The position numbers and the translations under genes are program-made. From the sequence record PZ445440.1: 64,000 bases of DNA, one strand, 5' to 3'. Under the pieces are notes generated by a model that saw nothing but the letters and a program-made list of their open reading frames with translations, was not told the DNA's origin and made no database searches. Below, one piece after another: positions 9,434-50,192 of the stretch. The first letter of the stretch is position 1; the number at the start of each line of letters is the position of its first letter. This stretch comes from a phage.

Positions 9434-9470
9434 TGATGTGGTCATTATAACCACATCATGTTAAAGCGTT
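9434..9470 (-). promoter_or_regulatory. middle-type promoter: MotA-box-like AACGCTTTAAC, -10 TATAAT (9444-9449) inside inverted repeat TGATGTGG/CCACATCA
   Basis: read from sequence. Confidence 0.45.
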
Positions 9471-11158
9471 TATGAAACAGTCATTACAGTAAATCGTCCA
9501 ACTTTGCTCATCTGAAGATGTTGTCCATAAGCTTGTGGGTCATGGTCTCTGTGACTAATTATAAACACGTTTGCATTGGTTAGAGAGTTAAGAATTGTTG
9601 AAATAGCTTTAATACCTTCAGAATCAGTCGCGGAATCCATGACTTCGTCCATAATTAATGTATTGATTCTAACACCAGAAACCTTTTCAGCAATATCTCG
9701 CCATGTAAACAACAACGCGATATCGATACGTGCTTTTTCACCTTGACTAAATGAAGCATAACTGAACTCTTCACGACCACGTGATTTTATAGATTCATTG
9801 AATTCTTCGTCAATAGAAAACACGTAATCGGCTTCCATGATTTTAAGATAATGGTTAATCTGCTTATTGAACAAAGGCACGTATTTTTTAATGATAGCAC
9901 CTTTAATACCAGAATCTTTTAACATATCTGTGATAATACCACGGTGGTATTTTTCAAGAACGATGTCTGATTTTGTTTTAATGATTTTATCAAGTTCTTT
10001 TTGAAGCAAAGCTATCTCATCGGCATGGTCGATAAATTCCGCCGAGGCTTGTTCTATTGCAGCTTTAACTTTCTTAGCTTTATCAATAGTGGCAATCATT
10101 GCTTGTTTCTTGGTACGAATATCAGATGCAAGGTCCTGTTTAGTCTTAACATTAGCTCTGTATTCGTCCACTAGGACACTCAGATTATCTCTGTGACATG
10201 TAAGTTGCTCGAATGAGTGATTACATTCGTGAAGCTTATCGGTAATCTTAGAGACAATAGGATCACCCTGGTGCAACTGTGATGCGCAAGTAGGACACGT
10301 ACCGCCATCATGATACATCTTAATAACTTTGTTATATGAGTCGATTTTAGATTTAATCAAGAATGCTTCTTGTCCTATCTTGTTGAATGCCTCAGTAGGG
10401 TCTTCATCAAGAACGATATTAAGTAGTCGCTCATTAGCTTCTTCGATTTCTGCTTTTAATGAACGAGCTTCTTTGGCTAGGTCGTCATACATATTCTGTA
10501 GACGCGCTACATTATCGCCAGATAATTTCTTTTGACGTTCGATATTCTCGTTATAAATCTTAATTTGTTGGATAACACCATCTTTCTTGGCATCGAGAAC
10601 TTGCCCTTGGGAATTAAGTTCTCGAACTTGAGACTTATTGATTTTATCCATTTCAGCGAGTGTGCCAACTTCTAAAAGGTCTTCGACAAGTTTTCTACGA
10701 GCAGGGGTGCTAAGAGCCATGAAAGGGGTATACCCTGCCGTCCCAAGCACAACGATTTGTTTAAAAGACGCGTATGACATTCCGATGCTACGTTCAAATT
10801 CTTCTTGGAAGTCACGACTGCTGGCAGATTCATCGAGACGAACACCGTCAACGGAGATTTCGAAAATATTGGGCTTTTGGCCACGTCTAATGAAGTATTT
10901 TTTATCATCGAATTCCATCCAAAGCTCAACTAAGAGCTCTTTCTTGTTCGTGCTATTAATGATTTGTCCTTTCTTAACATCACGAAATGGTTTACCGAAA
11001 AGTCCGAAAGTAATGGCTTCTAACATCGTAGATTTACCACCGCCATTTTTACCAGTGATTAATGTCTTTTGGACTTTATCTAATTGGATATCAATAGGAT
11101 TCCCACCTACCGACATGATGTTTTGATAACGAACACGATTTAATTTAAATGATTTCAT
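9470..11158 (-). CDS. 46: recombination endonuclease subunit gp46 (Rad50/SbcC-like ATPase)
   Basis: 562 aa, Walker A GKNGGGKST, long coiled coil, C-terminal ATPase half. Confidence 0.9.
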   Translation of the reverse strand: MKSFKLNRVRYQNIMSVGGNPIDIQLDKVQKTLITGKNGGGKSTMLEAITFGLFGKPFRDVKKGQIINSTNKKELLVELWMEFDDKKYFIRRGQKPNIFEISVDGVRLDESASSRDFQEEFERSIGMSYASFKQIVVLGTAGYTPFMALSTPARRKLVEDLLEVGTLAEMDKINKSQVRELNSQGQVLDAKKDGVIQQIKIYNENIERQKKLSGDNVARLQNMYDDLAKEARSLKAEIEEANERLLNIVLDEDPTEAFNKIGQEAFLIKSKIDSYNKVIKMYHDGGTCPTCASQLHQGDPIVSKITDKLHECNHSFEQLTCHRDNLSVLVDEYRANVKTKQDLASDIRTKKQAMIATIDKAKKVKAAIEQASAEFIDHADEIALLQKELDKIIKTKSDIVLEKYHRGIITDMLKDSGIKGAIIKKYVPLFNKQINHYLKIMEADYVFSIDEEFNESIKSRGREEFSYASFSQGEKARIDIALLFTWRDIAEKVSGVRINTLIMDEVMDSATDSEGIKAISTILNSLTNANVFIISHRDHDPQAYGQHLQMSKVGRFTVMTVS

Positions 11159-11409
11159 ATGTATTCTCTTCGAATGAAGTCCTCTACATATTTTAACATG
11201 TCATCTCTATCAGCAAAATATTCATCTAGTTCTGCATACATAACAACACCTGGTGCGTACTCACAGGTAACATACATTGTTCCAAAGAAACGAGGAGTTG
11301 ATTCCTCGTAATTCTCAGTCCATTCAACGATACCAATATAACCGTCACCAATACTAAATTCATGACGATGGATTTCATAATCAGTCTTCGTCATTATACG
11401 CATCCTCAA
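11155..11409 (-). CDS. hypothetical protein
   Basis: track ORF, translationally coupled between 46 and 47. Confidence 0.5.
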   Translation of the reverse strand: MRMRIMTKTDYEIHRHEFSIGDGYIGIVEWTENYEESTPRFFGTMYVTCEYAPGVVMYAELDEYFADRDDMLKYVEDFIRREYI

Positions 11410-11638
11410 TACACGCTTCAGCCATTTTAAGAATAGAGCCGGGAGTATCGTTGTCCATTATATTAAAGCTAAATTCAATAGCCCAGTCGGTGCAGACATG
11501 AACTGCTTTAACTTCATTGCCTTCAACGCGTAATGGCTCAATCCAATACTTGATAGTGTTCTCGAATCCATCATCATCTTTAACGTCTATTTCAACTTCA
11601 AGCCTGAGTCCAGCATTGTTAAATTCATCTAAAGTCAT
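11381..11638 (-). CDS. hypothetical protein
   Basis: track ORF, acidic small protein. Confidence 0.5.
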   Translation of the reverse strand: MTLDEFNNAGLRLEVEIDVKDDDGFENTIKYWIEPLRVEGNEVKAVHVCTDWAIEFSFNIMDNDTPGSILKMAEACIEDAYNDED

Positions 11639-12654
11639 TGTGTTGCCTCAATATAAAGTTCGTTGGAATATTTGACCAGCGCTTCTCTGTCTTCGTCTGA
11701 GATATCTGGAATCGCGTCAATATATTCTTTAATGATATCTTGAAGTGATTTAATCTCGATTTCCTGGTCGTCATCAGATTCAACACTGTTATCAACTTTA
11801 GAAACCATACGAAGAGAGTGAACTACTTTTTCAAGTTCAGATTCAAACTTAGTCAACTCTGAATCAATTTCTGATACTATAACACGTACGGCTAGATTGG
11901 TATAATCAGAATAATTGATTTTGCCTTTAAACGGATAAGTGATTCGTCGATGCCATGTTGTTTCATTAGGAATAAATTCCATACGTTCAACATCAGTGTC
12001 AAATACCCAGAATCCACGAGGATCATTCTCATCGCCTGCAGTAAGGGTCCATGGTGTCCCAATATATTTGACGTTAGCAGCTTCAGAGATTGTGTGGAAG
12101 TGGCCAGACCAGACTTGTTTATAGGTCTTTAAGAAATCAGGTTCAAGCCCATGAGACTTCATTCCTTTATAGAAATAAAAACCATTCAGTTCCCAGTGCC
12201 CAACACAATACGCTGCAGAAGAAGTCTTGATGTGCTCTAAGATTTCACCTGTATTTTCTTCACACATCCATGGAACGATATCAATCAGACATCCGTCAAA
12301 ATCTACAGTAGTTGGATGCTCGTAAATAGTAAAGTTTTCAAATTGAGTTAACAATTCAGAAACAGTGTTAGGTGTTATGGTATTCTTAAACGCCATGTCA
12401 TGATTTCCTATCGTGACATGAACGTGAATGCCTGCTTTAGAAATCATATCAACGATTTCACGATTGAATTCCATTGTACGATGTGTTATTGCTTTACGGA
12501 CGTCAAACCAATCACCGTACTGAATCCAAGTTTTAATCCCGTGTTTCTTAGAGTATTCAATTGCTTGACGAATACCATCACGTTGAATATCTTGAACCCA
12601 TGGGTCGTCTTGTTTGACTCCGATATGGAAGTCGCCTAAGTGCAAAATTTTCAT
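11635..12654 (-). CDS. 47: recombination endonuclease subunit gp47 (Mre11/SbcD-like phosphoesterase)
   Basis: 339 aa, MKILHLGDFHIG...GNHD calcineurin-like motifs. Confidence 0.9.
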   Translation of the reverse strand: MKILHLGDFHIGVKQDDPWVQDIQRDGIRQAIEYSKKHGIKTWIQYGDWFDVRKAITHRTMEFNREIVDMISKAGIHVHVTIGNHDMAFKNTITPNTVSELLTQFENFTIYEHPTTVDFDGCLIDIVPWMCEENTGEILEHIKTSSAAYCVGHWELNGFYFYKGMKSHGLEPDFLKTYKQVWSGHFHTISEAANVKYIGTPWTLTAGDENDPRGFWVFDTDVERMEFIPNETTWHRRITYPFKGKINYSDYTNLAVRVIVSEIDSELTKFESELEKVVHSLRMVSKVDNSVESDDDQEIEIKSLQDIIKEYIDAIPDISDEDREALVKYSNELYIEATQ

Positions 12655-12677
12655 ATTATTTCCTCATTAGTTAATTC

Positions 12678-12724
12678 ATTCTATCATCCGTTTATAAAGC
12701 AAAAAAGGAACTCCGAAGAGTTCC
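12678..12724 (-). promoter_or_regulatory. terminator hairpin (12707-12724, GGAACTC-TTCG-GAGTTCC + U-tract) overlapping MotA box TTTGCTTTA (12695-12703) and -10 TAGAAT (12678-12683) upstream of gene 47
   Basis: read from sequence; MotA box matches T4 middle-promoter consensus. Confidence 0.5.
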
Positions 12725-12936
12725 TATCCACATAGTACACCGTACAGAGGCTCATTTGAACTTTTAAATCGAATGGGCTTGTATGTAATAGTTCCTTCGG
12801 CTTTAGCTTTATCATAAGACTCTTTAAAACGTCTCATTCTTTCTGCTTTGCCTTTACGGATTTTATCGAAATTTTCAGAAGTCGGGATGTTCGTCATGCA
12901 TAAGCACCTCTCAGAAAATGCCTAAATCAATTTCTC

Positions 12937-13158
12937 TCATCGTTTCCACCATTTCTTAACTTGAAATGAATCGACCCACACGAGTTGTTTTGGGTCTGCC
13001 TTTACAATAGGCGGACAAATTTCTGTAATAGAACCGTCGTGATATTCCTTTTCAGAAATTTTAACACAAAGAGGACCTCCCAATTTAAGGGTGAACCCTG
13101 CGTTCAGCTTCAGACGTTTAAACTTTATTTGAACTAGCGCCATTAATGATGTCCTCAA
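12937..13158 (-). CDS. hypothetical protein
   Basis: track ORF at the position where T4 has alpha-gt; no glycosyltransferase features. Confidence 0.4.
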   Translation of the reverse strand: MRTSLMALVQIKFKRLKLNAGFTLKLGGPLCVKISEKEYHDGSITEICPPIVKADPKQLVWVDSFQVKKWWKR

Positions 13159-13441
13159 TAGCCTGACGAGTAGTAACCCACTGGATTTTAATTAACTTGT
13201 CATTGTATGGTTGTCGTAGAATATCCCGAGATTTCTTAATAGCATATTCGTAAGCTTCGAAGTTGTTTTGAATTGCTGCTTCTTGAGCATGAGCATAAAG
13301 ACGGTTTAGTTCAAAACGATTCTTTTTAAGAATCTTTTCGGATTTTTTACGTGCTTCAGCTTCATTTTTCTTTTGGATTTCTTGTAGCATTTTAGCTACT
13401 GCATCTTCTGCTTCTTTATTTTCAATAATCTCGGTAGTCAT
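13118..13441 (-). CDS. hypothetical coiled-coil protein
   Basis: track ORF. Confidence 0.5.
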   Translation of the reverse strand: MTTEIIENKEAEDAVAKMLQEIQKKNEAEARKKSEKILKKNRFELNRLYAHAQEAAIQNNFEAYEYAIKKSRDILRQPYNDKLIKIQWVTTRQAIEDIINGASSNKV

Positions 13442-13442
13442 A

Positions 13443-13658
13443 TTATCTCATTAAATTAAAATAAAAACGTCCATCCTCTTCAATACAGAACTCGTACTCA
13501 ACTGGAGTTCCATTTATCGAAAATGACACGTCATGTGGGTTCAAAGGGTCGATGTCAAAATTAATTTTAAATTCTCGACCCAACAGTTTTACCAAATAAG
13601 GGATTGCTTCGTCAAAAGGTTCTTCTAAGTAGTTAGAGATGTCAATTGTCATCCTCAT
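13443..13658 (-). CDS. hypothetical protein
   Basis: track ORF trimmed to internal ATG to limit overlap with gene 55. Confidence 0.45.
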
Positions 13659-14199
13659 ATAAAAAATCCAAACTAGGCGAATCGCTAACAACTTCCTTCT
13701 TTTCAGCCCCAGGAGCTTTATAAGCGGATTCTTCATAATGCGTCATTTTATCGTAGATGTCTTGAATAAACGTTTCATCTACCAACGCTACCATATCATC
13801 GTCATGACTGTCGTAGACATTATGAACGAAGTAACTATATTTCTTTGCAACTTCCTTACGTTCTTTTTTGATACGTTGGACAAAAGCATTAAAACAAGCT
13901 CGAGTTATGTATGCATGTGGGTTATTGTACTTAGTTTCGTCGAAATTATGAAGTCCCTTAATAGAGGCTTCAATCCCATCTGCAATCATCTCCTGCTTCC
14001 AAGACTGGGTATATCCTGAAAAGTTGAAACGTTTGGACAGGCCTTCGGCGATAAGCATAATTGCTAAACCGATGGTATCATTCTGACGAATAATTTTGTT
14101 TGGGTCTTTATTATTTAAGAGCTCCTTTTTCCACTCGATTATAGCGGCGAGAAGCTCTTTATTATTCACATAGTTATTTTTAGGTTTTTGTTCAGTCAT
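13642..14199 (-). CDS. 55: late-transcription sigma factor gp55
   Basis: 185 aa; [67 protein letters not shown] matches T4 gp55. Confidence 0.95.
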
Positions 14200-14220
14200 A
14201 AGTACCTCTTAGCTCAATTC

Positions 14221-14265
14221 ATAGGTCTATTATATCATAATATTTAGAGACCTATCTTAAAGCAC
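14221..14265 (-). promoter_or_regulatory. gene 55 promoter region: MotA-box-like TGCTTTAAG, -10 inside inverted repeat ATAGGTCT/AGACCTAT
   Basis: read from sequence. Confidence 0.4.
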
Positions 14266-14274
14266 GAGATACTA

Positions 14275-14765: not shown

Positions 14766-15142
14766 TTTACCGCCTTAACAATTTTCAGATCAACGAATTT
14801 TTTCTTACGTTGATTTTTCATACGACGGATAGTCTTTTCAGAGATTTCATGTTTCTGATAAGCTTTAGATTCAACACCAAATGCAGCAACGTCAAATTCA
14901 GAAAGAATATATTGTACTAGAATTTCGCGAATAGAATTACGTCCAATTTTCTGGTCGTGTTTTTGCATGATTTCATAAAGACGGAATTCCCACGCGTCAA
15001 GAACTTGAGGAGTAACAATATTGCCGGATTCCAGAAGAGCAACAACTTTATCGAAAGCGAAAGAATTAACTACGTTTTTGATTTTAGTAGACATATTATT
15101 TTCCTCGGTTATTTTATTATCCAACGAGAGAATTATATTCAT
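14762..15142 (-). CDS. hypothetical protein
   Basis: track ORF. Confidence 0.5.
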   Translation of the reverse strand: MNIILSLDNKITEENNMSTKIKNVVNSFAFDKVVALLESGNIVTPQVLDAWEFRLYEIMQKHDQKIGRNSIREILVQYILSEFDVAAFGVESKAYQKHEISEKTIRRMKNQRKKKFVDLKIVKAVK

Positions 15143-15160
15143 CTCTCAAGAGTTTGTATA

Positions 15161-15400: not shown

Positions 15401-15423
15401 GATATTTTCCTCATTTTAAGACG

Positions 15424-15460
15424 ATAGGAAGATAATAACATGTCTTCCTATCGTTGTACA
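15424..15460 (-). promoter_or_regulatory. early-type promoter with -10 TTATTAT flanked by perfect inverted repeat GATAGGAAGA/TCTTCCTATC
   Basis: read from sequence. Confidence 0.45.
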
Positions 15461-15463
15461 TTA

Positions 15464-16533: not shown

Positions 16534-16681
16534 TTTATTTTCCTCTATAGTAGATGGTTTAATCTTAACACATCTATTGAGGATGTAAACTGTTTTATGA
16601 AAATATTTTCAATTTGAGAGGGGCACAAGGAGATAGTGAAGTGAAGATTCCAATGGATTATATTAGAAACGAGATAAAGAA

Positions 16682-23742: not shown

Positions 23743-23769
23743 AATATTTTCCTCTCGTTAAGATAGATT

Positions 23770-23799
23770 CATTATACTCCAACCATCCTTGGTTGTAAA
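23770..23799 (-). promoter_or_regulatory. early promoter GTTTAC-N18-TATAAT with palindrome AACCAAGGATGGTT in the spacer
   Basis: read from sequence; near-identical copy at 24783-24811. Confidence 0.5.
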
Positions 23800-24782: not shown

Positions 24783-24811
24783 AAAAATTTATTATACTCC
24801 AACCATCCTTG
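24783..24811 (-). promoter_or_regulatory. early-type promoter (TGTACA -35-like, TATAAT) with spacer palindrome AACCAAGGATGGTT
   Basis: read from sequence. Confidence 0.45.
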
Positions 24812-24819
24812 GTTGTACA

Positions 24820-25853: not shown

Positions 25854-25880
25854 TTATAACCCGTCCTTGGGTAAAGCGTT
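25854..25880 (-). promoter_or_regulatory. middle-type promoter: MotA-box-like ACGCTTTAC, 13-nt spacer, TATAAT
   Basis: read from sequence. Confidence 0.4.
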
Positions 25881-26426: not shown

Positions 26427-26463
26427 ATAGGTCTATAATAACATAACCATAGACCTTGTAAAC
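26427..26463 (-). promoter_or_regulatory. early promoter GTTTAC/TTATTAT with inverted repeat ATAGGTCTAT/ATAGACCT around -10
   Basis: read from sequence. Confidence 0.5.
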
Positions 26464-26891: not shown

Positions 26892-27872
26892 TTATTTCAG
26901 TAAAGTTACTTCAGAGATTTCCTCCCAACCATCTTTATCAGTTGAAATAAAATCTGCTACATAAAGAGCCGTACGTAATGATACATTGCGAAGACGAGAT
27001 ACGTTAGCCTTCATCCAAGATAATGCTTTATACGTTTCTGCATCAGTCAGACCACGTTTCTGCATCATGTCAGTAGATAATATTACATCTTCAACTCGAA
27101 CCATAATCTCTTCATTAGAGTGTACTCCAAGGTCAAGATACACTGAACGAGATACTAAAGCTTGAAGGTGTGGAGCAAGTTTAGAACCGCGTTCTAACTC
27201 TTTATCGATATCAACGTTTGTAATGAAAACGATAGTACCTTCAAACTCAAATTCTTTATCGATACCCTTATCATCAAGATAAGATGATGCAGTGCTCCAA
27301 CAAACTTTGCGTTTATCACCGGTATCTAATGCGGCTTTAAGAAGGTTCAAGATGTCCATATCTGAGAATACGTCAACGTCGTCGATTAAGAGAACGCTGT
27401 CTGCATCACGGTTGAGCCAAAGTTGTTCGTAAAGGCCAATACCAGAGATTTTACCATTAATACTTTTGTATTTGATGAAACCATTATCATTAGCATTATT
27501 AAGTGCTTTATCCAGAGAATACGTCTTACCAATACCTGCTGCACCTGAAATAATGAGTGAACGAATTTTGCCATCGATAATGCCATTCGTCATCATGTTC
27601 ATTACTTTAAAGCGTTTGTTGATACGAGTTTTCATATCTTCAGTGCTTTCAATAACTGCAACTGGTGACGTCTCAACTCCTTCCATTACGATGTCTGATT
27701 TGAAGACCCATACTCCACGTTCAGAGCCATCAATCATAACGAAAATTTTACCATCACCTAAGTGGGAACATTCAGGATTAAGCTTTGCCGGGAACCATGT
27801 CTTTGTGGCAACATAAGAACCAGAGATTTCGTTATTACGATAGATACCTTTTTTGATTTGAACGTTGAACAT
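26892..27872 (-). CDS. AAA+/P-loop ATPase of unknown function
   Basis: Walker A SGAAGIGKT, Walker B VLLIDDVD, IVFITN; start at ATG preceded by GGAGAA. Confidence 0.65.
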   Translation of the reverse strand: MFNVQIKKGIYRNNEISGSYVATKTWFPAKLNPECSHLGDGKIFVMIDGSERGVWVFKSDIVMEGVETSPVAVIESTEDMKTRINKRFKVMNMMTNGIIDGKIRSLIISGAAGIGKTYSLDKALNNANDNGFIKYKSINGKISGIGLYEQLWLNRDADSVLLIDDVDVFSDMDILNLLKAALDTGDKRKVCWSTASSYLDDKGIDKEFEFEGTIVFITNVDIDKELERGSKLAPHLQALVSRSVYLDLGVHSNEEIMVRVEDVILSTDMMQKRGLTDAETYKALSWMKANVSRLRNVSLRTALYVADFISTDKDGWEEISEVTLLK

Positions 27873-27903
27873 TTTATTCTCCAAATTTACTCATTTCGTT
27901 TCG

Positions 27904-27939
27904 ATAGGTCTATAATAACATATCCTAAAAGCATGTACA
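27904..27939 (-). promoter_or_regulatory. early-type promoter (TGTACA, TTATTAT) with GATAGGTCTA element
   Basis: read from sequence. Confidence 0.4.
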
Positions 27940-30275: not shown

Positions 30276-30294
30276 TTTGTTCTCCATTTGTTTT

Positions 30295-30333
30295 GGTAGG
30301 ACTACTATAACATAGTCCTACCAAGATGTAAAC
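30295..30333 (-). promoter_or_regulatory. early promoter GTTTAC-N17-TTATAGT with perfect 10-bp inverted repeat GGTAGGACTA/TAGTCCTACC around -10
   Basis: read from sequence. Confidence 0.5.
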
Positions 30334-30566
30334 TACCGATTGTGTTTTAAATGTTGATAAAGTTCTTCAACTTGTTTAGGGTCCAAAACAATTAGGTCAT
30401 TTTCTTGGCGAAGATAAATCCATCCCTTATCCCCAGGACCATTTTTACAAAACATCACCACCATATCATCATCTTCAGCGCTTTCAGGTAAAAGTTCAAG
30501 TACGCCGTCTTCAGATTTTTCAGTATAATCGTAAAGCATAATATCCTCACATAATCTCGTTAACAT
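30333..30566 (-). CDS. hypothetical acidic protein
   Basis: track ORF. Confidence 0.5.
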   Translation of the reverse strand: MLTRLCEDIMLYDYTEKSEDGVLELLPESAEDDDMVVMFCKNGPGDKGWIYLRQENDLIVLDPKQVEELYQHLKHNR

Positions 30567-30730: not shown

Positions 30731-30782
30731 TTCTCCTCTAGTAAGTAAGGTTTACTATAACACAACCTGAGGAGAAGTAAAC
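30731..30782 (-). promoter_or_regulatory. early promoter GTTTAC/TTATAGT; spacer arm TTCTCCTC complementary to downstream arm GAGGAGAA that is the SD of the 30726 gene
   Basis: read from sequence. Confidence 0.5.
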
Positions 30783-32957: not shown

Positions 32958-33496
32958 TCTTTTATTTCCAGTAGTTTATTTGATTTAAGGTAATTAGCCT
33001 TTTCTAGGACTTCAGAAGCATATTTACTTCCAGCACTTGTCTTCCATCCAGCATTATATGAGGATATAGCTTTTCTTATATCCCCGTTATGTATATTTAA
33101 CCAATAAGAAAATTCGATATAAGCCCATCTGGCTGAATTAGACCGCTTAGATAGCATTTTCTTAATTTGGGCATCAGTCATATTATAACCAAGCTGGTTA
33201 ATTCTTGCCCTCATTGTTGGTAGATAATTTTGGAACATTCCATACGCATGGTGACCTTTCTTATCTTTAAGATTAATACCGGCAGATGATTCCTGCCATA
33301 GTATTGCGGCCATTATGTATCCAAGTCCTTTCTTATGCATATTTTCATGCGTTTTAAATTTTCCGTCCTTAGAAAACTGTTCCCCAAACTGATAAGCATA
33401 ATTCAAGTTATCGAGTTGGACATTACTAAAAGTATGCTCGGAGCTATGTGCTGATAATGAAAGAGCAAATAGACCAGCGAGTAGTGCTTTTCTCAT
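32954..33496 (-). CDS. periplasmic lytic-transglycosylase-like protein (signal peptide + SLT-like)
   Basis: signal peptide MRKALLAGLFALSLSAHS; WQESSAG...YGMFQ resembles SLT catalytic E-S and GLMQ motifs. Confidence 0.5.
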   Translation of the reverse strand: MRKALLAGLFALSLSAHSSEHTFSNVQLDNLNYAYQFGEQFSKDGKFKTHENMHKKGLGYIMAAILWQESSAGINLKDKKGHHAYGMFQNYLPTMRARINQLGYNMTDAQIKKMLSKRSNSARWAYIEFSYWLNIHNGDIRKAISSYNAGWKTSAGSKYASEVLEKANYLKSNKLLEIKE

Positions 33497-33963: not shown

Positions 33964-33970
33964 TTTGATT

Positions 33971-34020
33971 TCTCCTCTAGTTGACAAGTCTATAGTAACA
34001 CAACTAGAGGAGAAGTAAAC
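33971..34020 (-). promoter_or_regulatory. early promoter GTTTAC/TTACTAT with 13-bp inverted repeat TCTCCTCTAGTTG/CAACTAGAGGAGA; downstream arm contains regB SD
   Basis: read from sequence. Confidence 0.55.
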
Positions 34021-35936: not shown

Positions 35937-36114
35937 ATTATTTCTCTTAAGGTTTGGGCCATTCCGTGGCACATGAATTGTCCATTTCTGTATTTACCCA
36001 TTACCGCACTTGGGCTCGACCTTATTACAGGTTGGCGGGAATCCCTCATAGAATCATGAGGTCCAGGTTGTTCCCATTTTATTTGAAGGTAAATAGGCCT
36101 AAGTATAGGCCTAT

Positions 36115-36693
36115 TTAATTACCACGGGCTGCATTAGCAACGGCGTAAGCGTACTGAACATTAGCGTCTTTAAACGTACCTTTAGAGGTATCTATTTCCG
36201 CCTTAAAGCCACCTTTAGCCATAACATCGGCAAATTCTTTACGGAAAGCCATTGCATCAAGACCTTTCCATGATGATTTATGCTTGGCAAATTCAAGACC
36301 GGCGTAGTTGACAGCCTTAGCTAATTTATTATCAATAACCCATTTACCTGCTTTAGGCACAAACTTCGGGCCTTTTTGTTTAGAGAACAGTTTTAAATTC
36401 CAGCGACGAAGGTCACTGTCGGCTTTAACAAAAGCTGCGTCTAAGTTACTAGCAACAACATCTTCAATATGAGCAAATTTAAGTCCGTCAACTTCAATAT
36501 TTAGATCGTTACGCCAGCGTAGTCCTTCCCAAGCGAAGGCTTTAAAATCAGAAGCTTTTGTGGCTAGATATCGTTCAAGTGGAGCAGTTTTAGGGTCAAA
36601 GCCGTTTCCGCCACGATAATTCCACTCGTCCTTATTAATGCCTTGAGCTTTTCCTGCAAAGGCCTCGGCGATAAATTCTTTATATGTTTTCAT
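36115..36693 (-). CDS. internal-protein-like capsid-targeted protein (CTS MKTYKEFIAEA)
   Basis: N-terminus matches T4 internal protein capsid targeting sequence. Confidence 0.65.
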   Translation of the reverse strand: MKTYKEFIAEAFAGKAQGINKDEWNYRGGNGFDPKTAPLERYLATKASDFKAFAWEGLRWRNDLNIEVDGLKFAHIEDVVASNLDAAFVKADSDLRRWNLKLFSKQKGPKFVPKAGKWVIDNKLAKAVNYAGLEFAKHKSSWKGLDAMAFRKEFADVMAKGGFKAEIDTSKGTFKDANVQYAYAVANAARGN

Positions 36694-36718
36694 TTTGTTC
36701 CTATTGATTTAATTTATG

Positions 36719-37781: not shown

Positions 37782-37835
37782 TTCCTCCAAGTAGTTGATG
37801 AATGTATAGTATCAAAACCCTTGGAGGAAGTAAAC
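37782..37835 (-). promoter_or_regulatory. early promoter GTTTAC/TACTAT; spacer arm TTCCTCCAAG complementary to downstream arm CTTGGAGGAA that contains denV SD
   Basis: read from sequence. Confidence 0.5.
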
Positions 37836-38603: not shown

Positions 38604-38606
38604 AAT

Positions 38607-38628
38607 ACCTCCCACGTTTATAGGAGGT
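38607..38628 (-). promoter_or_regulatory. lysozyme leader hairpin (ACCTCC-TATAAACGT-GGGAGGT) sequestering the e SD; late-promoter-like TATAAA in loop
   Basis: read from sequence; same arrangement as described for T4 gene e. Confidence 0.6.
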
Positions 38629-38637
38629 ATTTATTAC

Positions 38638-40803: not shown

Positions 40804-40823
40804 AATATTCTCCTCATGTTTTA

Positions 40824-40861
40824 ATAGGACTACTATAACATAGCCCTATAATTGTGTAAAC
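40824..40861 (-). promoter_or_regulatory. early promoter GTTTAC/TTATAGT with inverted repeat ATAGGACTA/TAGCCCTAT
   Basis: read from sequence. Confidence 0.5.
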
Positions 40862-42117: not shown

Positions 42118-42156
42118 GATAGGACTACTATAACATAGCCCTATCTTGTTGTAAAC
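42118..42156 (-). promoter_or_regulatory. early promoter GTTTAC/TTATAGT with inverted repeat GATAGGACTA/TAGCCCTATC
   Basis: read from sequence. Confidence 0.5.
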
Positions 42157-42640: not shown

Positions 42641-42649
42641 AATGATTCC

Positions 42650-44277: not shown

Positions 44278-44305
44278 AAGGAGGACCGGAGTCCTCCGTA
44301 TTATT

Positions 44306-44899: not shown

Positions 44900-44969
44900 A
44901 TTATTACCTTTCAATTGGTGGTTTATTATCCAATGAGAGCATTATACTCTGCTCTCAAGAGTTTGTAAA

Positions 44970-45197: not shown

Positions 45198-45243
45198 TTT
45201 GTTTTCCTCTTGATTTGATGTGATTACTATAACATAAACTTAC

Positions 45244-45408: not shown

Positions 45409-45437
45409 TTTGTTTACTCCTCTGTAGTTAATAAGTC

Positions 45438-45466
45438 TATAGTATCACCATCCTTGGTGCTTGTAC
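45438..45466 (-). promoter_or_regulatory. early-type promoter (TGTACA, TACTAT) with spacer palindrome CACCAAGGATGGTG
   Basis: read from sequence; related to 23770-23799 cassette. Confidence 0.4.
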
Positions 45467-45476
45467 ATCATTATTT

Positions 45477-45782
45477 TTAATTTTTCCAACTTAACAACTT
45501 GTAGTGTCCTTCATTCATACGTGGTTTATCCCAAGAAATACTAATATATGATTCACCACCAATAGAAGTCGCCGGGTTTTTCTCTACCGTAAGACCTTCA
45601 CTTTCCAGCCATTCAATAGTATTTGCGCATAAATCAGAAGAACACCTCATCGGGAACCGGCAAGATTTTTCACCTTTATCTGCAGTGTTATACATCTTTT
45701 CTAAAATGCGCTTTTGCACATTTTTAAAAATAGTTTCAGCAGATTCTTCAGATTTTTTATTCAGTTCAGTATAAAGATTCAT
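45477..45782 (-). CDS. hypothetical protein
   Basis: track ORF. Confidence 0.5.
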   Translation of the reverse strand: MNLYTELNKKSEESAETIFKNVQKRILEKMYNTADKGEKSCRFPMRCSSDLCANTIEWLESEGLTVEKNPATSIGGESYISISWDKPRMNEGHYKLLSWKN

Positions 45783-45839
45783 AATATTCTTCTCATTAAT
45801 AGGGCTCGTAATATCTCAATCATAAGCCCATGTACGCGT

Positions 45840-46115
45840 TTATTTCATATTATCGAAATATTCTTCAGCGATTTCGTCATTATCATGGTAAACTTTAGAA
45901 GACAGTTTAACATAACCTTCTGCCGTGAACATATTAATCACAACCTTTATAGTATACCACTGTCCGTCTTCATTACCCATTACTGCGTAAGTTTCAAACA
46001 TCGGATGCTCAGGTCCAATAACTTTAATATCATTCACCGTACGACTGAAATCTTCTGGAACGCATTTCATAAAGAAGTTGAACAGTTCACCGTAATTATC
46101 CATTTCATTCTCCAA
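45840..46115 (-). CDS. hypothetical acidic protein
   Basis: track ORF. Confidence 0.5.
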   Translation of the reverse strand: MENEMDNYGELFNFFMKCVPEDFSRTVNDIKVIGPEHPMFETYAVMGNEDGQWYTIKVVINMFTAEGYVKLSSKVYHDNDEIAEEYFDNMK

Positions 46116-46143
46116 GTTTTTTCTGTATCGGTAGTTGATAGTT

Positions 46144-46175
46144 GTATAGTACCACGGAAGAACAGGGATGTAAAC
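46144..46175 (-). promoter_or_regulatory. early promoter GTTTAC-N17-ACTATAC
   Basis: read from sequence. Confidence 0.4.
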
Positions 46176-46246
46176 AGTTTTGTGAAAAAAAAATTTTAAA
46201 AAAGTTTTGTGGAATTCTAGGGCAGGGAGAGGAAAGGCCTAGATAC

Positions 46247-46274
46247 CAAAAAGCCCTATCTAAATGATAGGGCT
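46247..46274 (-). terminator. rho-independent terminator (AGCCCTATC-ATTTA-GATAGGGCT + UUUUU)
   Basis: read from sequence. Confidence 0.6.
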
Positions 46275-46281
46275 TAAAAAA

Positions 46282-46845
46282 TTATTTACCTAGTTTAGTT
46301 ATTATAGCTTCGGCAGCAGCTTTTAGCTTAGATGCAGTGTTAATACGATTTTTAATTTCAGTATACGCATCGCCAAGAACATCAAGGCTATCAGAATAAA
46401 CACTTACACTATTGCGTTCGCTATTTGAAATAGAACCTTTAGTTTTACGATCAAAATCAGTGTACACGTCTTGAAGATCACGGGCTGCCTTCTTTGCATC
46501 ATCCAATGCATCAAGAGCTTTATTCAAAGCATTGACATATTTTTTAGTGTCAAACATATTCTTAGAAATTTTAACAGGTGCACGTTCAGGAGTAGCTAAG
46601 GCGGATTTAGGAACCTGCGCGCCAGATGCCAGTTTCTTAGAAATTTTGAAAAACGCTTTATTGAAACTATTTTCTTGACTCATCGTAAAAGAACTAGTAT
46701 CGATGTTATACATTTCAATAGCTTTGGCTTTCCACTTAAGAAAATCGCTACGGTCTTTTGGGTCTAAGTGGAAGAATACTTTAGTAAGATCTGCTTCAGA
46801 TGGTAATTTTGCTGCTTCGGTTAAAAATTCGGCGTAGGTTTTCAT
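46282..46845 (-). CDS. internal-protein-like capsid-targeted protein (CTS MKTYAEFLTEA)
   Basis: CTS N-terminus. Confidence 0.6.
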   Translation of the reverse strand: MKTYAEFLTEAAKLPSEADLTKVFFHLDPKDRSDFLKWKAKAIEMYNIDTSSFTMSQENSFNKAFFKISKKLASGAQVPKSALATPERAPVKISKNMFDTKKYVNALNKALDALDDAKKAARDLQDVYTDFDRKTKGSISNSERNSVSVYSDSLDVLGDAYTEIKNRINTASKLKAAAEAIITKLGK

Positions 46846-46931
46846 TTAAAATCCTTGAAATAATTTATCGGTTGGTTATTAATTATTTATCACATTGTTA
46901 TATGTAACAGCATTCTCTGAGCGATTCAAAC

Positions 46932-46959
46932 TAAAAAGCCCCAACAGAAAGGTTTGGGC
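46932..46959 (-). terminator. rho-independent terminator (hairpin + UUUUU)
   Basis: read from sequence. Confidence 0.55.
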
Positions 46960-46967
46960 TAAGAATG

Positions 46968-47432
46968 TTATTTGATTTGTTTAGCAGACCAAATGCGGTC
47001 TTTAATAAGTTTTTGGATATCTTCAACATACTCAAGGCTATGAGCGTGAGGATTATCTTTGAAACTATGTGCTCGTGCCAGTTTCTGGCCTTCTGTTTTG
47101 ATTACTAAAAGCTCTTTAAGAATTGCTTCATACTTAGAAATAATTCCTTTGGCGATATTTTTTTCTTGAGCTGTTTTATGGTCCGCTTTTGGCACAGGTG
47201 CTTTACCTGTAGCTTTCTGGAACAATTCACCTGATGCAGCTAGGCTTTTAAAAACTCGGCTAACAGTATTAGCATTAGTAAAACCTTCGGCTTTAAAATC
47301 TCTAATAAAACGGAAACGTTCTTCATCGGAGGCGTCTTTGTAAGAATATTTACCTGCTTGAATTGCTGCAATCGCAGCGGCTTTTACATCTGAACTAGAT
47401 TGTTCAGTCAAAAATTCAGCGTATGATTTCAT
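46968..47432 (-). CDS. internal-protein-like capsid-targeted protein (CTS MKSYAEFLTEQ)
   Basis: CTS N-terminus. Confidence 0.6.
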   Translation of the reverse strand: MKSYAEFLTEQSSSDVKAAAIAAIQAGKYSYKDASDEERFRFIRDFKAEGFTNANTVSRVFKSLAASGELFQKATGKAPVPKADHKTAQEKNIAKGIISKYEAILKELLVIKTEGQKLARAHSFKDNPHAHSLEYVEDIQKLIKDRIWSAKQIK

Positions 47433-47474
47433 GTTGCTTTTCCTAAGTTAATTAACTTATCTATTTATTATGCC

Positions 47475-47501
47475 AAAAAGCCCCAACCGTAAGGAAGGGG
47501 C
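47475..47501 (-). terminator. rho-independent terminator (GCCCC...GGGGC hairpin + UUUUU) ending the tRNA/small-RNA unit
   Basis: read from sequence. Confidence 0.6.
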
Positions 47502-47504
47502 TAA

Positions 47505-47813
47505 GCCTTGCGGCAACCTTGTCGGGGTTCCACCTGCTAAGGCAAGTGTTTGTACGAAACGCCGGGATTTGAACCCGGTTATCAAGCAGTTGACGCTACT
47601 CAATATTTTTAAAAGGCCATATCTCGACCATATCCGAACGTTCCGTCAAAAACGCTACTCGGCTTACGGCAAAGATATTTCCTCGAATCGATAATTCTGT
47701 GCGCCGTTTCTGCTGTGATGTAAGGGGATATTAACAAATCATAAAGATTTATTAAGACCAGTCCTTACTCAGGGAACATCAGTCCGACGACTTGCCGGTA
47801 GCGACCCGGCTTC
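47505..47813 (-). ncRNA. non-coding structured region downstream of the tRNAs; possible stable small RNA(s) analogous to T4 species 1/2 RNAs; contains a tRNA-like T-arm (47561-47580)
   Basis: no ORF; CCGGGTTCAAATCCCGG T-arm-like element and several stems; between tRNAs and terminator. Confidence 0.3.
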
Positions 47814-48158
47814 TTATTTTGACATATCATCAATTTGTTCTCTACGTCTACGCCATAGATTAATTACTTCATCAACACATTCGGCGTTTGATATATGACG
47901 GCAATAATATAATGATTCGCGTTTCTGGAACCGATGTTGCAATGGGATTTCGTTTAAAAGGTCTTTACGGTCAAAGTATTCAAAACTAGTTAACCCGGAA
48001 CGGTTTTTAATGAACTTCCAATGTCCAAATTCATTTTGAACATAGATGTAATCGGCATGCTGATACAGCGAATTAATCAATCGATGAGAAATAACTGTAT
48101 CATATTCGTTAAAATAAAACGTTAAATCATGAACTACTAGATAAATATTGCCTTTCAT
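47814..48158 (-). CDS. hypothetical protein (115 aa)
   Basis: track ORF trimmed to ATG with SD GAGGAAAA; track start would overlap tRNA-Arg. Confidence 0.55.
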   Translation of the reverse strand: MKGNIYLVVHDLTFYFNEYDTVISHRLINSLYQHADYIYVQNEFGHWKFIKNRSGLTSFEYFDRKDLLNEIPLQHRFQKRESLYYCRHISNAECVDEVINLWRRRREQIDDMSK

Positions 48159-48176
48159 ATTTTCCTCACTTAAAGT

Positions 48177-48253
<77 letters not shown>

Positions 48254-48259
48254 AATATA

Positions 48260-48333
48260 TGACCCAGACCAGATTCGAACTGGTAACCTTTCCCTTATGA
48301 GGGGACTGCTGCTAACCATTGAGCTACAGGGCC
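48260..48333 (-). tRNA. tRNA with CAU anticodon (Met or lysidine-modified Ile)
   Basis: T-arm ACCAG-TTCGAAT-CTGGT, anticodon loop CTCATAA; acceptor has one mismatch, D-arm pairing weak. Confidence 0.55.
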
Positions 48334-48412
48334 TAAATAACTTTCTATTATGAAAGGCACTTTAGAGCACCTTTGGTAATAGAGGGTATGAATTAATAAT
48401 AACACATAATTC

Positions 48413-48928
48413 TTAAAGCAAATCAATCATTTTAACAGTTGGCAAAACGATTTCTTCTTCAATATAAGCAAATTCAACACATTCAACTACACGCAAGAAA
48501 TCATAATCATAATATTCAGAAGCATGGCCAAGAATACCAACGAGACCTTCTGATACTAAATATCCATTCTCACGGAACAGGTCGAATACACGCGATTCGT
48601 CTTCTTCAGATTTATTACCAAGGTCGACTTCAATATCAAAGACCTTTTTAATGAATTCTGGATAAAGCTGGTCTGAGAACAGTCCTTCAACCAAGTATTC
48701 ATAAATTAAAAGCGAGCAATCACTGAATGGTGTATTACCACAGTAACGTTCAGCTTTAGTGCTAGAATGACTGCTCTTAAATTTCTTCAAGAGATATTTA
48801 AACTGTTGGAGCTCATGCTCTTCCACTTCAAACAATGTTTTGGTTTTATAGTTGTCACCATCATTTTCATAGGTAGTGACATCAATTACGTAGCCCTTAG
48901 GAATTGTACTGCCTAAACAAATATTCAT
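48413..48928 (-). CDS. hypothetical protein
   Basis: track ORF. Confidence 0.55.
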   Translation of the reverse strand: MNICLGSTIPKGYVIDVTTYENDGDNYKTKTLFEVEEHELQQFKYLLKKFKSSHSSTKAERYCGNTPFSDCSLLIYEYLVEGLFSDQLYPEFIKKVFDIEVDLGNKSEEDESRVFDLFRENGYLVSEGLVGILGHASEYYDYDFLRVVECVEFAYIEEEIVLPTVKMIDLL

Positions 48929-48932
48929 TTAC

Positions 48933-49223
48933 TCACCGTACCATATTAATGTAATTATATTCAATGCAACGTAATTTCAAAGGATTCTTGAAAATATCAT
49001 ATTCAAGAGGGCCTTTTTCTGTTTCAATAAAGAAATCAAAGTTAACTGTGTTAAATTTATCGTCTTCACAGAGTAATTTAACTTGCGAAGATGAACGGTC
49101 GATGTAAACCTTTTCAACTTCAAAATTAGTTAGAATACCGTAGTCATTAACTAGTGCTTTAGCTGCACGTTGATCGCTTTCATATCCATTCTCGACAGAT
49201 TTTACTTTAGCATAAAGAATCAT
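48933..49223 (-). CDS. hypothetical protein
   Basis: track ORF. Confidence 0.5.
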   Translation of the reverse strand: MILYAKVKSVENGYESDQRAAKALVNDYGILTNFEVEKVYIDRSSSQVKLLCEDDKFNTVNFDFFIETEKGPLEYDIFKNPLKLRCIEYNYINMVR

Positions 49224-49600
49224 GAGTGTTCCACCACTTCAAAGGTATGAGCATCAACAATATGATACCAGTCAAAATTTTCTTCCGCGTTTTTATAAAT
49301 TTCGCGAAGAGCTTCAACAGTTTTTCCTGTAGCAACAAGATCATCAATACCACCAAGAGGATAACAGTCATAACCAGCAAACAGAAGGAAATTAATAGTT
49401 TCTGTAGGGGCCGGATGCAGTGTACCATTGTCATCGACTACTTCAAAGAACATATAACCAGGCGATTTAGATTTAATCCAAGCCCATGCTTGAGCTGCTG
49501 AATCAAATGGTCTGCGTATCAAACGACAATCAGGGTCTTTAGAAGGATTTGCTTCAAAATCCGCGTATACGTGATATTTCATTTTACTCACCTTTTGCAA
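49220..49600 (-). CDS. hypothetical protein
   Basis: track ORF. Confidence 0.55.
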   Translation of the reverse strand: MQKVSKMKYHVYADFEANPSKDPDCRLIRRPFDSAAQAWAWIKSKSPGYMFFEVVDDNGTLHPAPTETINFLLFAGYDCYPLGGIDDLVATGKTVEALREIYKNAEENFDWYHIVDAHTFEVVEHS

Positions 49601-49790
49601 TTTTATCCATAACGATAGCGATTAAGCCGATTAGAAATGCTACTACCAATGAGATAGAGTTTTCAGTTGTTGTCAGTAGTCCGCAAATGAATCCTACAAA
49701 CATCGAAAAACTAAAAGCCATTGAAGCAATTACTACAGCAACATTACGAATCAGTTCAGCGCGTTTCATTTTATTTCTCCATTTACTCAT
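49584..49790 (-). CDS. small membrane protein
   Basis: track ORF. Confidence 0.5.
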   Translation of the reverse strand: MSKWRNKMKRAELIRNVAVVIASMAFSFSMFVGFICGLLTTTENSISLVVAFLIGLIAIVMDKIAKGE

Positions 49791-49798
49791 TTTGTTCT

Positions 49799-49837
49799 GA
49801 TAGGACTACTATAACATAGTCCTATCAGCATGTAAAC
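49799..49837 (-). promoter_or_regulatory. early promoter GTTTAC/TTATAGT with perfect inverted repeat GATAGGACTA/TAGTCCTATC
   Basis: read from sequence. Confidence 0.5.
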
Positions 49838-49840
49838 TAC

Positions 49841-50128
49841 TTACAGAAGAGTTTTTGCAATAATTTTAAGCTGAGCTACAGAAATATGCTTAGCTTTAAA
49901 CAGTGCAGTCTCTTCAGCGGGAGAGATAACAATAGTAGCGCCATCTTTCTTAGCGGACCACCCGTCTCCTAAGTAAACAGTACCTTTTACTTCTTCGCCG
50001 TCAACCAGACTAATCATTGGTTTACCCTCACGTCCTTTATTTGCTTTAATAACTTCGGAAGTAAGGGTTGCTTCGGTCAGAGTAGAAACGTTAGCAACAG
50101 GTGATATAAATTCTTTATAGGTTTTCAT
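49841..50128 (-). CDS. internal protein I-like capsid-targeted protein (CTS MKTYKEFISP), 95 aa
   Basis: CTS N-terminus; position between tRNAs and 57B as T4 ipI; same length as T4 IPI precursor (from memory). Confidence 0.6.
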   Translation of the reverse strand: MKTYKEFISPVANVSTLTEATLTSEVIKANKGREGKPMISLVDGEEVKGTVYLGDGWSAKKDGATIVISPAEETALFKAKHISVAQLKIIAKTLL

Positions 50129-50156
50129 TTTATTTCCTTGAGGTTGTTTATTTGAT

Positions 50157-50192
50157 AGGATGATAGTATCACACCATCATCCTTATGTAAAC
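50157..50192 (-). promoter_or_regulatory. early promoter GTTTAC/TACTAT with inverted repeat AGGATGAT/ATCATCCT
   Basis: read from sequence. Confidence 0.45.

Follow-up and report, generated by a model that had tools for sequence, protein, structure and literature searches.

Small intergenic cassettes that combine an early promoter with a stem-loop have been described in T4-type phages. In RB49 and phi1, these PeSL (promoter-early stem-loop) elements consist of an AT-rich region, an early promoter, a stem-loop, a Shine-Dalgarno sequence (SD) and an ATG (Arbiol et al. 2010, PMC2839356), and Comeau et al. 2014 (PMC4122927) subsequently added PST/T4 and nt-1/KVP40 to the phages that have them. Both papers interpret the stems as terminators and recombination linkers, with those of PST/T4 drawn just upstream of the promoter; neither discusses translation, covariation or a masked SD, and their analyses do not include phages of the RB69 type. 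PeSL-like elements also occur at T-even internal-protein loci, according to the summary of Repoila et al. 1994 given in PMC2839356. A second kind of promoter-associated hairpin is found in the T4 genes e, soc, 49, I-TevI and related endonuclease genes, whose leaders sequester the ribosome-binding site (RBS) and contain an internal late promoter (PMC3014915, PMC2988022). In the gene e type of T4-type phages, long transcripts mask the SD, whereas the shorter ones made from the promoter within the hairpin leave it open (PMC3014915). According to a 2010 review, the genes controlled by such leader hairpins “are all late genes” (PMC2988022). Here, we describe a 64,000-nucleotide stretch (the window; sequence record PZ445440.1) of Escherichia phage ChristianSchoenbein, a Mosigvirus (RB69-like T-even), with 100% identity to positions 96479-160478 of MZ501056.1. 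Most early promoters of this phage appear to sit inside inverted repeats able to fold only in read-through RNA. We consider it rather probable that these repeats encode RNA hairpins present only in transcripts arriving from upstream, and that they work as a switch in one type of cassette (type B) and perhaps as a barrier in another (type A).

All the genes between ca. 370 and 54,290 are on the minus strand, as is every cassette, hairpin and promoter discussed here. This early/middle region runs through DNA polymerase, gene 55, nrdD, regB, denV, e, the tRNAs, ipI and genes 1, 3, 2 and 4. Promoters were predicted with the repeat ignored, using the T4-type early definition (a GTTTAC or TGTACA -35, a 16- to 18-nt spacer and a TAnnnT -10, often with TGn). 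There were 23 of them between 9 and 51 kb of the window, 20 intergenic ones of the early type and 3 of the MotA type, mostly preceding hypothetical open reading frames (ORFs), i.e., many copies among small ORFs as in the PeSLs. Like the promoters of the PeSLs, they match the consensus, have an A-rich region upstream and are followed by an SD and an ATG 22 to 48 nt away. A generic sigma70 scan of the window was uninformative (69 sites versus 66.6 expected), and thus the promoters were accepted for their fit to the T4-type consensus and their agreement with Nolan 2006. The best minus-strand matches of the generic scan fall on the cassettes, which also coincide with RB69 Pe predictions. The T4 records NC_000866 and AF158101 contain no promoter features.

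A sequence-only reading of this DNA had listed 13 promoters with inverted repeats on both sides of the -10. Twelve of them do have such a repeat, of 8 to 14 bp. At the thirteenth (27904, within 27902-27930), only ca. 4 bases are complementary, so that there is no real repeat; an intrinsic terminator precedes this promoter, and its orthologues in other phages carry stems of 8 to 11 bp. Inspection of the 16 quoted sites and a scan for perfect inverted repeats placed the 5' arm in the spacer and the 3' arm just after the -10. Three copies can be added to the list, namely 44934-44957 (TGAGAGCA/TGCTCTCA), 16541-16583 (TCCTCAATAG/CTATAGAGGA) and the weak 15126-15147. The resulting fifteen cassettes have stems of 6 to 14 bp around the -10, that is, a stem-loop adjacent to the promoter as in the PeSLs. 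Perfect inverted repeats with loops of 3 to 30 nt are in clear excess in the window, with 10 of at least 10 bp (2.0 ± 1.2 in dinucleotide shuffles) and five of at least 12 bp (0.07 in the shuffles), four of which flank a -10. The z score of the RNA fold was -2.9 or lower in 10 of the 15 cassettes, with 0 to 1 of 200 shuffles equally stable; 15137 (15126-15147) and 30731 are individually nonsignificant by this measure, and 14221 is significant only together with its outer helix. When the spacers of the 23 promoters were paired with the downstream 34 nt of their own or of other promoters, the mean longest Watson-Crick run was 6.65 versus 4.76 and the duplex energy -11.1 versus -7.6 kcal/mol, and in 20,000 permutations no value as high was obtained (p<5e-5). 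This preference for the own arm indicates that the repeats are more than a shared palindromic consensus. The CCTATC that recurs in the 3' arms most plausibly belongs to the promoter consensus around the start site, which the spacer evolved to match, because a C at -3 to -1 was noted in RB69 (Nolan 2006).

The cassettes can be separated into two types by the position of the arms. In type A (9434, the inner repeat of 14221, 15421, 26429, 30293, 40823, 42118, 44934, 49797 and 50157), the loop is the extended -10 (e.g., UGUUAUAG), the 3' arm spans ca. -7 to +5, and the helix ends 7 to 18 nt before the SD, which is not part of the 3' arm. In type B (16541, 30731, 33970 at regB and 37782 at denV), a pyrimidine-rich anti-SD directly after the -35 (UUCUCCUC..., UUCCUCC...) pairs with the SD (GAGGAGAA, GGAGGAA) across a loop of 17 to 30 nt containing the -10 and the predicted start. 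The SD is found in the 3' arm of a stable helix at 16541-16583, 30731-30776, 33970-34014 and 37782-37829, and also in the outer helix of 14201-14273. This last structure, at the gene 55 promoter, is nested. An inner 8-bp repeat of type A (AUAGGUCU/AGACCUAU, 14221-14255) flanks the -10, and an outer helix (AGUAUCUC/GAGGUACU, 14266-14273 with 14201-14208), whose 5' arm is upstream of the MotA box, hides the SD. The regB promoter (33970-34014) has a 14-bp helix, UUCUCCUCUAGUUG/CAACUAGAGGAGAA, and that of denV (37782-37829) one of 10 bp, UUCCUCCAAG/CUUGGAGGAA, the SD being sequestered in both.

It had been proposed that transcripts started at these promoters lack the 5' arm, and the geometry agrees, since the arm lies in the -35/-10 spacer and the predicted start ca. 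7 nt after the -10. The two kinds of leader were then folded, a check that the sequence-only reading had suggested. For gene 55, regB and denV, the read-through RNA folds at -24.3, -21.6 and -19.1 kcal/mol (z of -3.45, -4.4 and -4.6, i.e., from -3.5 to -4.6) with the SD paired, and the promoter-initiated leaders only at -1.4, -3.4 and -1.6 kcal/mol, with z near 0. By partition function, the accessibility of the stretch from SD to AUG in type B falls from 0.52-0.85 in the local transcript to 0.29-0.49 in the read-through one. The two weaker members behave likewise. At 16541-16583, before the 55.6 homologue, the anti-SD UCCUCAAUAG in the spacer forms 9 pairs and one A.A mismatch with the SD CUAUAGAGGA (z=-2.4; SD accessibility, 0.49 in read-through versus 0.85 in local RNA). 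At 30731-30776, before the mobD.2a homologue, UUCUCCUC right after the -35 pairs with GAGGAGAA over 8 bp (z=-1.15, weak alone) around a 30-nt loop that contains the -10 and the predicted start site (0.29 versus 0.55). Anti-SD runs of at least 6 nt occur in the spacers of 9.8% of the orthologue groups described below, versus 0.8 to 4.2% in controls. SD masking by type A was also considered and dropped, as the accessibility did not change consistently. Three features had escaped the sequence-only reading, i.e., that the 3' arm is the SD in a subset including regB and denV, that the arrangement is conserved across T-even genera, T4 included, and that G.U and A.C mismatches are not equally frequent.

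To compare relatives, we used the regB, gene 1 and gene 55 regions from IMG/VR, T4 from 1 to 80 kb and RB69 from 35 to 80 kb, with promoters predicted by the same procedure and grouped by the N terminus of the downstream protein. The feature recurs at orthologous promoters of T4 and of no fewer than five further T-even clades, with different arms and many double compensatory changes. In regB, the arms UUCUCCUCUAGUUG/CAACUAGAGGAGAA of the window are replaced by UUUUCCUCUUGACUG/CAGUUAAGAGGAGAA (two G.U) in T4, UUUCUCCUCUUUAUG/CAUAAAGAGGAGAAA in a third clade, UCUCCUGUAAG/CUUACAGGAGA in a fourth, and an inner GGGCCAU/AUGGCCC plus an outer UUUCCUU/AAGGAGA in a fifth. The inner regB arms are UAGUUG/CAACUA in the window, UUGACUG/CAGUUAA in T4, and UUUAUG/CAUAAA and UGUAAG/CUUACA elsewhere. 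These arms were taken from single-sequence folds; MAFFT plus RNAalifold on the regB leaders of nine lineages gave no consensus structure because differences in loop length misaligned the arms. In denV, UUCCUCCAAG/CUUGGAGGAA corresponds to UCUCCUGUAG/CUACAGGAGA in T4 and UUCUCCUGUAGAUG/CAUCUACAGGAGAA elsewhere. The gene 55 SD is hidden in five clades by co-varying arms, CCUCU/AGAGG in T4 and UGCCUCUU/AAGAGGCA, GGCCUC/GAGGCC and CUUCCG/CGGAAG in others. For type A, the cassette at 30293 has as its T4 orthologue the mobD.2 promoter with a 14-bp repeat (AGUUGACAAGAUUA/UAAUCUUGUCAACU) and four doubly compensated positions with respect to the window, and other isolates show G.U intermediates. RNAalifold on these orthologues (alignment A2) found 13 pairs, three with double changes, and only 1 of 91 cells broken. 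The earlier suggestion that selection is for pairing, not for one binding sequence, is thus upheld, as arms vary between copies and orthologues and the pairing is kept.

The same picture emerges from the whole collection. In 124 orthologue groups from 55 sources, stems of at least 10 pairs were found in 16.5%, versus 2.0% when the 3' halves were swapped between groups, and stems of at least 8 pairs in 35% versus 12%. By clade, the values were 64% versus 13% for the window (at least 8 pairs) and 27% versus 1% for T4 (at least 10 pairs), with five other clades going in the same direction. With the independent predictions of Nolan et al. for early promoters of RB69, the result was 40% versus 16% at 8 pairs or more. 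This best-stem test with swapped halves was used in place of pairing at a fixed register, which exceeded the controls only slightly when all 281 predicted promoters were taken together (35 to 39% versus 27 to 30%), a signal diluted because only some cassettes share the register. In an ungapped alignment of 32 distinct type A cassettes (A3), 11 of the 12 stem columns have double changes. The double-changed cells number 87, versus 26.2 in shuffles (0/500), and the covariation score is 0.671, versus 0.289 when shuffled (0/500) and 0.09 to 0.25 in slid registers.

The kind of mismatch tolerated can tell which molecule folds. A symmetric duplex element should tolerate G.T and A.C equally, and sense-strand RNA only G.U. 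Among the inner eight pairs of the type A alignment, the non-Watson-Crick cells were 17 G.U and 3 A.C, and in all stems of at least 8 pairs there were 27 and 12 (p=0.024). The sense RNA is also 1.5 to 1.9 kcal/mol more stable than the antisense (group-averaged p=0.004). Stems of at least 8 pairs are found in 15% of the promoters with a terminator-like site within 110 nt upstream, versus 40% of the rest (one-sided p=0.023), which fits a hairpin that is of consequence only at promoters reached by transcription from upstream. We therefore favor a single-stranded sense molecule, most simply read-through RNA. Same-strand genes adjoin the cassettes and there are few terminator-like sites between them.

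The repeats and their excess over chance, the covariation specific to copies and orthologues, the G.U bias of the sense strand and the predicted occlusion of the SD were computed directly. Where transcripts start, that RNA reads through from upstream, and whatever the scheme that follows says about function are inferences. The 5' arm would occupy the otherwise unconstrained -35/-10 spacer (in gene 55, the sequence upstream of the MotA box), the loop would hold the -10, and the 3' arm would be at or after the start site. A polymerase starting at the embedded promoter would make an mRNA without the 5' arm and with an open leader, and read-through RNA would be folded. In type B (regB, denV, the ORFs at 30547 and 16351, and gene 55 via its outer helix), where the 3' arm is the SD, the read-through copies would be translationally silent and the protein made only from transcripts of its own promoter. 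This would amount to the switch of gene e, soc, 49 and I-TevI built on early or middle instead of late promoters. The target of RegB/S1, GGAGAAUAAAA, must be single-stranded (PMC1702504). The type B SDs (GGAGAAAUCAAAA, GGAGAACAAAA and similar) match it, and masked read-through copies would probably also escape RegB, because this enzyme needs a single-stranded GGAG. For type A, we propose as most likely an intercistronic barrier, the role of the “stem-loop” in PeSLs, which would either shield the upstream message at its 3' end once the downstream SD has been cleaved or attenuate read-through. As a side effect, the repeated cassettes would supply homology for ORF swapping. That T-even phages use the promoter within a hairpin as a general isoform switch, at early and middle genes as well as at late ones, is a tentative extension that we regard as possible.

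Several points weigh against this scheme. All the promoters are consensus predictions, and start sites, transcripts and structures are likewise predicted from the sequence. About 40% of the promoters in the window (23776, 24796, 37069, 45231, 45444, 46151 and 27917) have no such repeat, which is thus not obligatory. The sequences of alignment A3 were picked for having the stem, and their kinship inflates the shuffle statistics. Counted as distinct events, the G.U to A.C asymmetry is only 7 versus 2; moreover, G.T is also the least destabilizing mismatch in single-stranded DNA, so that a DNA hairpin of the non-template strand is likewise compatible with it. For type A, the partition function gave no consistent change in SD accessibility, so its function is a guess; its hairpins have no U-tract, and a terminator scan called none of the cassettes between 26 and 46 kb.

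The alternative that survives best, although we consider it unlikely, is that the cassettes are DNA-level PeSL modules, in which a cruciform or hairpin, or simply conserved homology, provides preferred crossover points at which small ORFs are inserted, deleted or swapped, perhaps with the help of endonuclease VII, gp46/47 or another structure-specific protein. Exchange does occur at the cassettes, which the earlier reading had put forward as possible recombination sites. The extra ORF102c and the extra internal-protein gene of RB69 are each bounded by cassette copies, with overlapping high-scoring segment pairs (HSPs) at 27868-27933 and 50106-50160, and in two relatives ipI is replaced exactly between the cassettes 49813 and 50168. 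Of the 42 alignment breakpoints with RB69 and seven related contigs, nine are in cassettes, which cover 3% of the bases (p=3.5e-6), and PeSL mini-circles were shown experimentally in RB49/phi1 (PMC2839356). However, the enrichment at indel boundaries disappears within intergenic DNA, where 9 of 18 breakpoints are in cassettes versus 42.5% expected (p=0.34), and thus a preference for cassettes beyond their intergenic position has at most weak support. Furthermore, homology-driven exchange requires conserved sequence, not pairing, and would homogenize the arms instead of yielding lineage-specific compensation, and a symmetric duplex predicts equal G.T and A.C instead of 17:3. Loops of 8 to 30 nt also disfavor cruciform extrusion.

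Next comes the possibility that the hairpins act on transcription, as attenuators or terminators of upstream transcripts that insulate each promoter cassette. The stem-loop of the RB49 PeSL211/210 cut downstream lacZ as strongly as rrnB T1 (PMC2839356), and stems are weaker where a canonical terminator lies upstream, as if both were interchangeable. Against this, the hairpins of the window are followed by A-rich leaders and not by a T-run, their stems are AT-rich, unlike the G/C-rich ones of RB49, and the type B helices include the SD and track its variants, something that termination does not require. On these grounds, attenuation seems an improbable main role. Identity as intrinsic (rho-independent) terminators was rejected, given the lack of a T-run and the A-rich tails.

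Templated mutation at quasi-palindromes is well documented in T4, and the repeats could be a neutral by-product of such “correction” by intrastrand template switching during T4-type replication, together with cassette duplication. The copies at 30295, 40824, 42118 and 49799 are indeed obvious paralogues. Neutrality leaves unexplained why distant genera, with sequences unrelated to each other, have the repeats at one and the same place in the promoter, the frequent choice of the SD as partner of the spacer, the persistence of G.U but not A.C intermediates, and the weaker stems behind terminators, which makes it very improbable. Least credible of all is a palindromic operator for a dimeric DNA-binding protein (e.g., an early-promoter shut-off factor) on a symmetric site over -10/+1, an option that we rejected because the arms are not conserved (they include GAUGUGGU, AGGAUGAU, UGAGAGCA, UUCUCCUCUAGUUG and GACAAGAUUA, with covariation in 11 of 12 stem columns) and those of type B are 17 to 30 nt apart, even if early-promoter shut-off is described as incompletely understood (PMC3014915), many copies share GATAGG...CCTATC, which the start-site consensus explains for CCTATC, and the center of symmetry is fixed at -12/-11 in 44 to 47 distinct cassettes, which follows from a short loop packed around the -10.

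Returning to read-through hairpins, the remaining cassettes of the window are as follows. A 9-bp hairpin (UGAUGUGGU-uauaaug-ACCACAUCA, 9434-9458; z=-4.5) surrounds the -10 of the MotA-box (middle-type) promoter of the 45.2 homologue, which matches RB69 Pm:36813 (Nolan 2006). Its T4 orthologue, upstream of gene 45.2 at 33246-33302, folds differently, into a helix of ca. 15 bp (-21.7 kcal/mol) that pairs the MotA-box region with the -10 region. The weak repeat GAGAGA/UCUCUC at 15126-15147 (z=-1.06), in the early promoter of the 55.2 homologue, is a paralogue of 44934, and the 12-bp hairpin ACGAUAGGAAGA/UCUUCCUAUCGU at 15421-15454 (z=-4.3) has the -10 UAUUAU in the loop. At the promoter of the nrdC.8 homologue (26429-26456; z=-2.3), there are 8 perfect pairs, or 11 including G.U, and the orthologous promoter in T4 and one further clade has a type B anti-SD helix. 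The hairpin at 30293-30324 has 12 bp (UUGGUAGGACUA/UAGUCCUACCAA; z=-4.6). Those at 40823-40850 (AUAGGGCUA/UAGUCCUAU; z=-2.9) and 42118-42145 (GAUAGGGCUA/UAGUCCUAUC; z=-5.4) have 8 and 9 Watson-Crick pairs, respectively, plus one sense-strand G.U each. The promoter of the e.6 homologue (44934-44957; z=-3.0), which was absent from the first list, contains UGAGAGCA/UGCUCUCA. That of the tRNA.4 homologue (49797-49828; z=-6.1) has the 12-bp CUGAUAGGACUA/UAGUCCUAUCAG. The start annotated for the gene at 49584-49790, an ATGAGT at 49790, is upstream of a GGAG SD and is probably 21 nt too early, because the T4 orthologue starts at the second ATG (MKR...). Lastly, a type A-like hairpin of 8 bp (AGGAUGAU/AUCAUCCU, 50157-50183; z=-3.4) is found at the ipI promoter. 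None of the cassettes has the late promoter recognized with gp55 (TATAAATA). Only the copy of the gene e leader hairpin in the window (AAUACCUCC-UAUAAACGUG-GGAGGUAUU, 38604-38631; z=-4.2) has a late-promoter-like box, in its loop, with the SD in the 3' arm and followed by AUG. The record starts gene e at a GTG (38615), probably in error; the ATG that comes after the SD, at 38603-38601, yields the MNIFEML of T4 lysozyme.

A second class of repeat, for which a palindrome in the promoter spacer (CCAAGGATGG) had been reported, could be confirmed with four exact copies and one with a single mismatch, all in minus-strand promoter regions. The motif, CCAAGGA(U/C)GG (CCAAGGAUGG mini-hairpin), is located at 3283-3294, 23783-23792, 24803-24812, 25861-25870 and 45448-45457, where we estimate that ca. 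0.1 to 0.2 exact copies would be expected by chance. The mini-hairpin AACC-AAGGAU-GGUU is wholly within the early promoter spacer of the nrdC.3 homologue (23766-23794) and appears again in the spacer of the next early promoter (24787-24814). CACC-AAGGAU-GGUG is in another early promoter spacer (45446-45459), the variant ACCC-AAGGAC-GGGU in that of a MotA-box promoter (25859-25872), and GCC-AAGGAU-GGC just downstream of a TATAAT box (3283-3294). T4 and other genera also have the motif, at early and middle promoters and possibly at late ones, and its flanks co-vary across phages (AACC/GGUU, AUCC/GGAU, CACC/GGUG, AGCC/GGCU, UACC/GGUA and ACCC/GGGU), extending over a mean of 2.69 pairs versus 0.72 with swapped flanks. 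It seems to form a small hairpin whose conserved loop, AAGGAU, resembles an SD; as all of it is upstream of the -10, it would exist only in read-through RNA.

Other features of the window deserve mention. Two terminator hairpins (46846-46967 and 47433-47480), similar to each other (AGCCC...GGGGCTTTTT), flank a gene absent from RB69 (46968-47432), which suggests that this gene was gained or lost by exchange between terminators rather than promoters. The unannotated 381-nt intergenic gap that follows (47433-47813, minus strand), chiefly 47497-47813, has 92% identity over 318 nt to the T4 rnaC/rnaD region. These are the stable “species 1 and 2” RNAs beside tRNA-Arg, which are unannotated in the GenBank record and have no Rfam family. 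Unrelated sequence takes the place of the internal-head-protein gene 36115-36693 (region 36035-36696) in RB69, and a perfect 12-bp palindrome (TAAATAGGCCTA-agta-TAGGCCTATTTA, 36090-36117) marks the boundary of this gene. Genes 2 and 4 are separated by a putative homing endonuclease gene (53190-53840) that is absent from a relative with 97 to 98% identity, as expected for a mobile gene. Downstream of DNA polymerase, positions 1-3260 contain genes whose annotation is UDP-arabinose biosynthesis, in agreement with reports that RB69-type phages modify their DNA with arabinosyl-hydroxymethylcytosine.

The timing of phage genes is studied with T4 as the reference, and published summaries confine RBS masking by hairpins to late genes. 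If the general isoform switch is true, regB, denV, gene 55 and perhaps a tenth or more of the early ORFs would be translated only when their own promoters supply the transcript, which would also be the form open to RegB, and the same cistrons on read-through RNA would be silent and RegB resistant. It would provide a sequence-encoded basis for the difference between immediate-early and delayed-early expression and would explain why co-transcribed early genes keep private promoters. If this is confirmed, one DNA segment would give two mRNA isoforms whose translation and decay are set by the transcription start alone. Since T4 shows the same helices, direct testing is possible there. Annotation and the engineering of therapeutic T4-like phages would also be affected, because a gene moved without its spacer would change its expression.

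Several known systems share parts of this architecture. N4 virion-RNA-polymerase promoters are short DNA hairpins with a 5- to 7-bp stem and a 3-nt loop, the structure being recognized by the phage polymerase. They have in common with the cassettes the association of a promoter with an inverted repeat, but here there are normal -35/-10 boxes for the host polymerase and loops of 7 to 30 nt. Intercistronic stabilizer hairpins (REP type) and intrinsic terminators are likewise stable stem-loops between cistrons of a polycistronic RNA; the cassettes, without a U-tract, are not canonical terminators, and may have a protective role. Rfam 15 at gathering score matched only two tRNAs in the whole window and no family for the cassettes. 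As for RBS masking combined with early or middle promoters, no description was found in the searchable literature, a coverage that left outside the T4 genome review and Repoila 1994. The likeness to PeSLs that had been noticed is apt, as the stem-loops of RB49/phi1 are most often between -35 and -10 or overlap the -10 (PMC2839356). Both are intergenic composites of the same parts, with many copies among small ORFs, and copies of both bound some ORF insertions. However, RB49 stems are G/C-rich (GGGG...CCCC), relatively conserved and associated with near-perfect TTGACA/TATAAT promoters, whereas those of the window are AT-rich, copy specific and co-varying, and include the SD in a subset. The elements of the internal-protein loci are closer, at least as summarized in PMC2839356, with T4-type early promoters and weaker, AT-rich stem-loops of variable size, and the cassettes at 49797 and 50157 are of this kind; in that summary, though, they are described for these loci only, with no role other than that of shuffling aids. 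Regulation may be the primary reason why PeSL-type cassettes are conserved, with gene shuffling secondary. With e, soc, 49 and I-TevI, type B appears to share a 5' arm upstream of an internal start, the SD in the 3' arm, and a long silent and a short open transcript. The embedded promoter there is the late TATAAATA, and here it is of the sigma70-type early or MotA-type middle kind, so that expression would be expected to be tied to the early burst instead of delayed to late; type A, in addition, leaves the SD unoccluded. Judging from their sequences, the cassettes seem to belong with the promoter/stem-loop cassettes of the PeSL type, with a substantial subset that resembles the RBS-masking switch of e, soc and 49, set on early and middle promoters.

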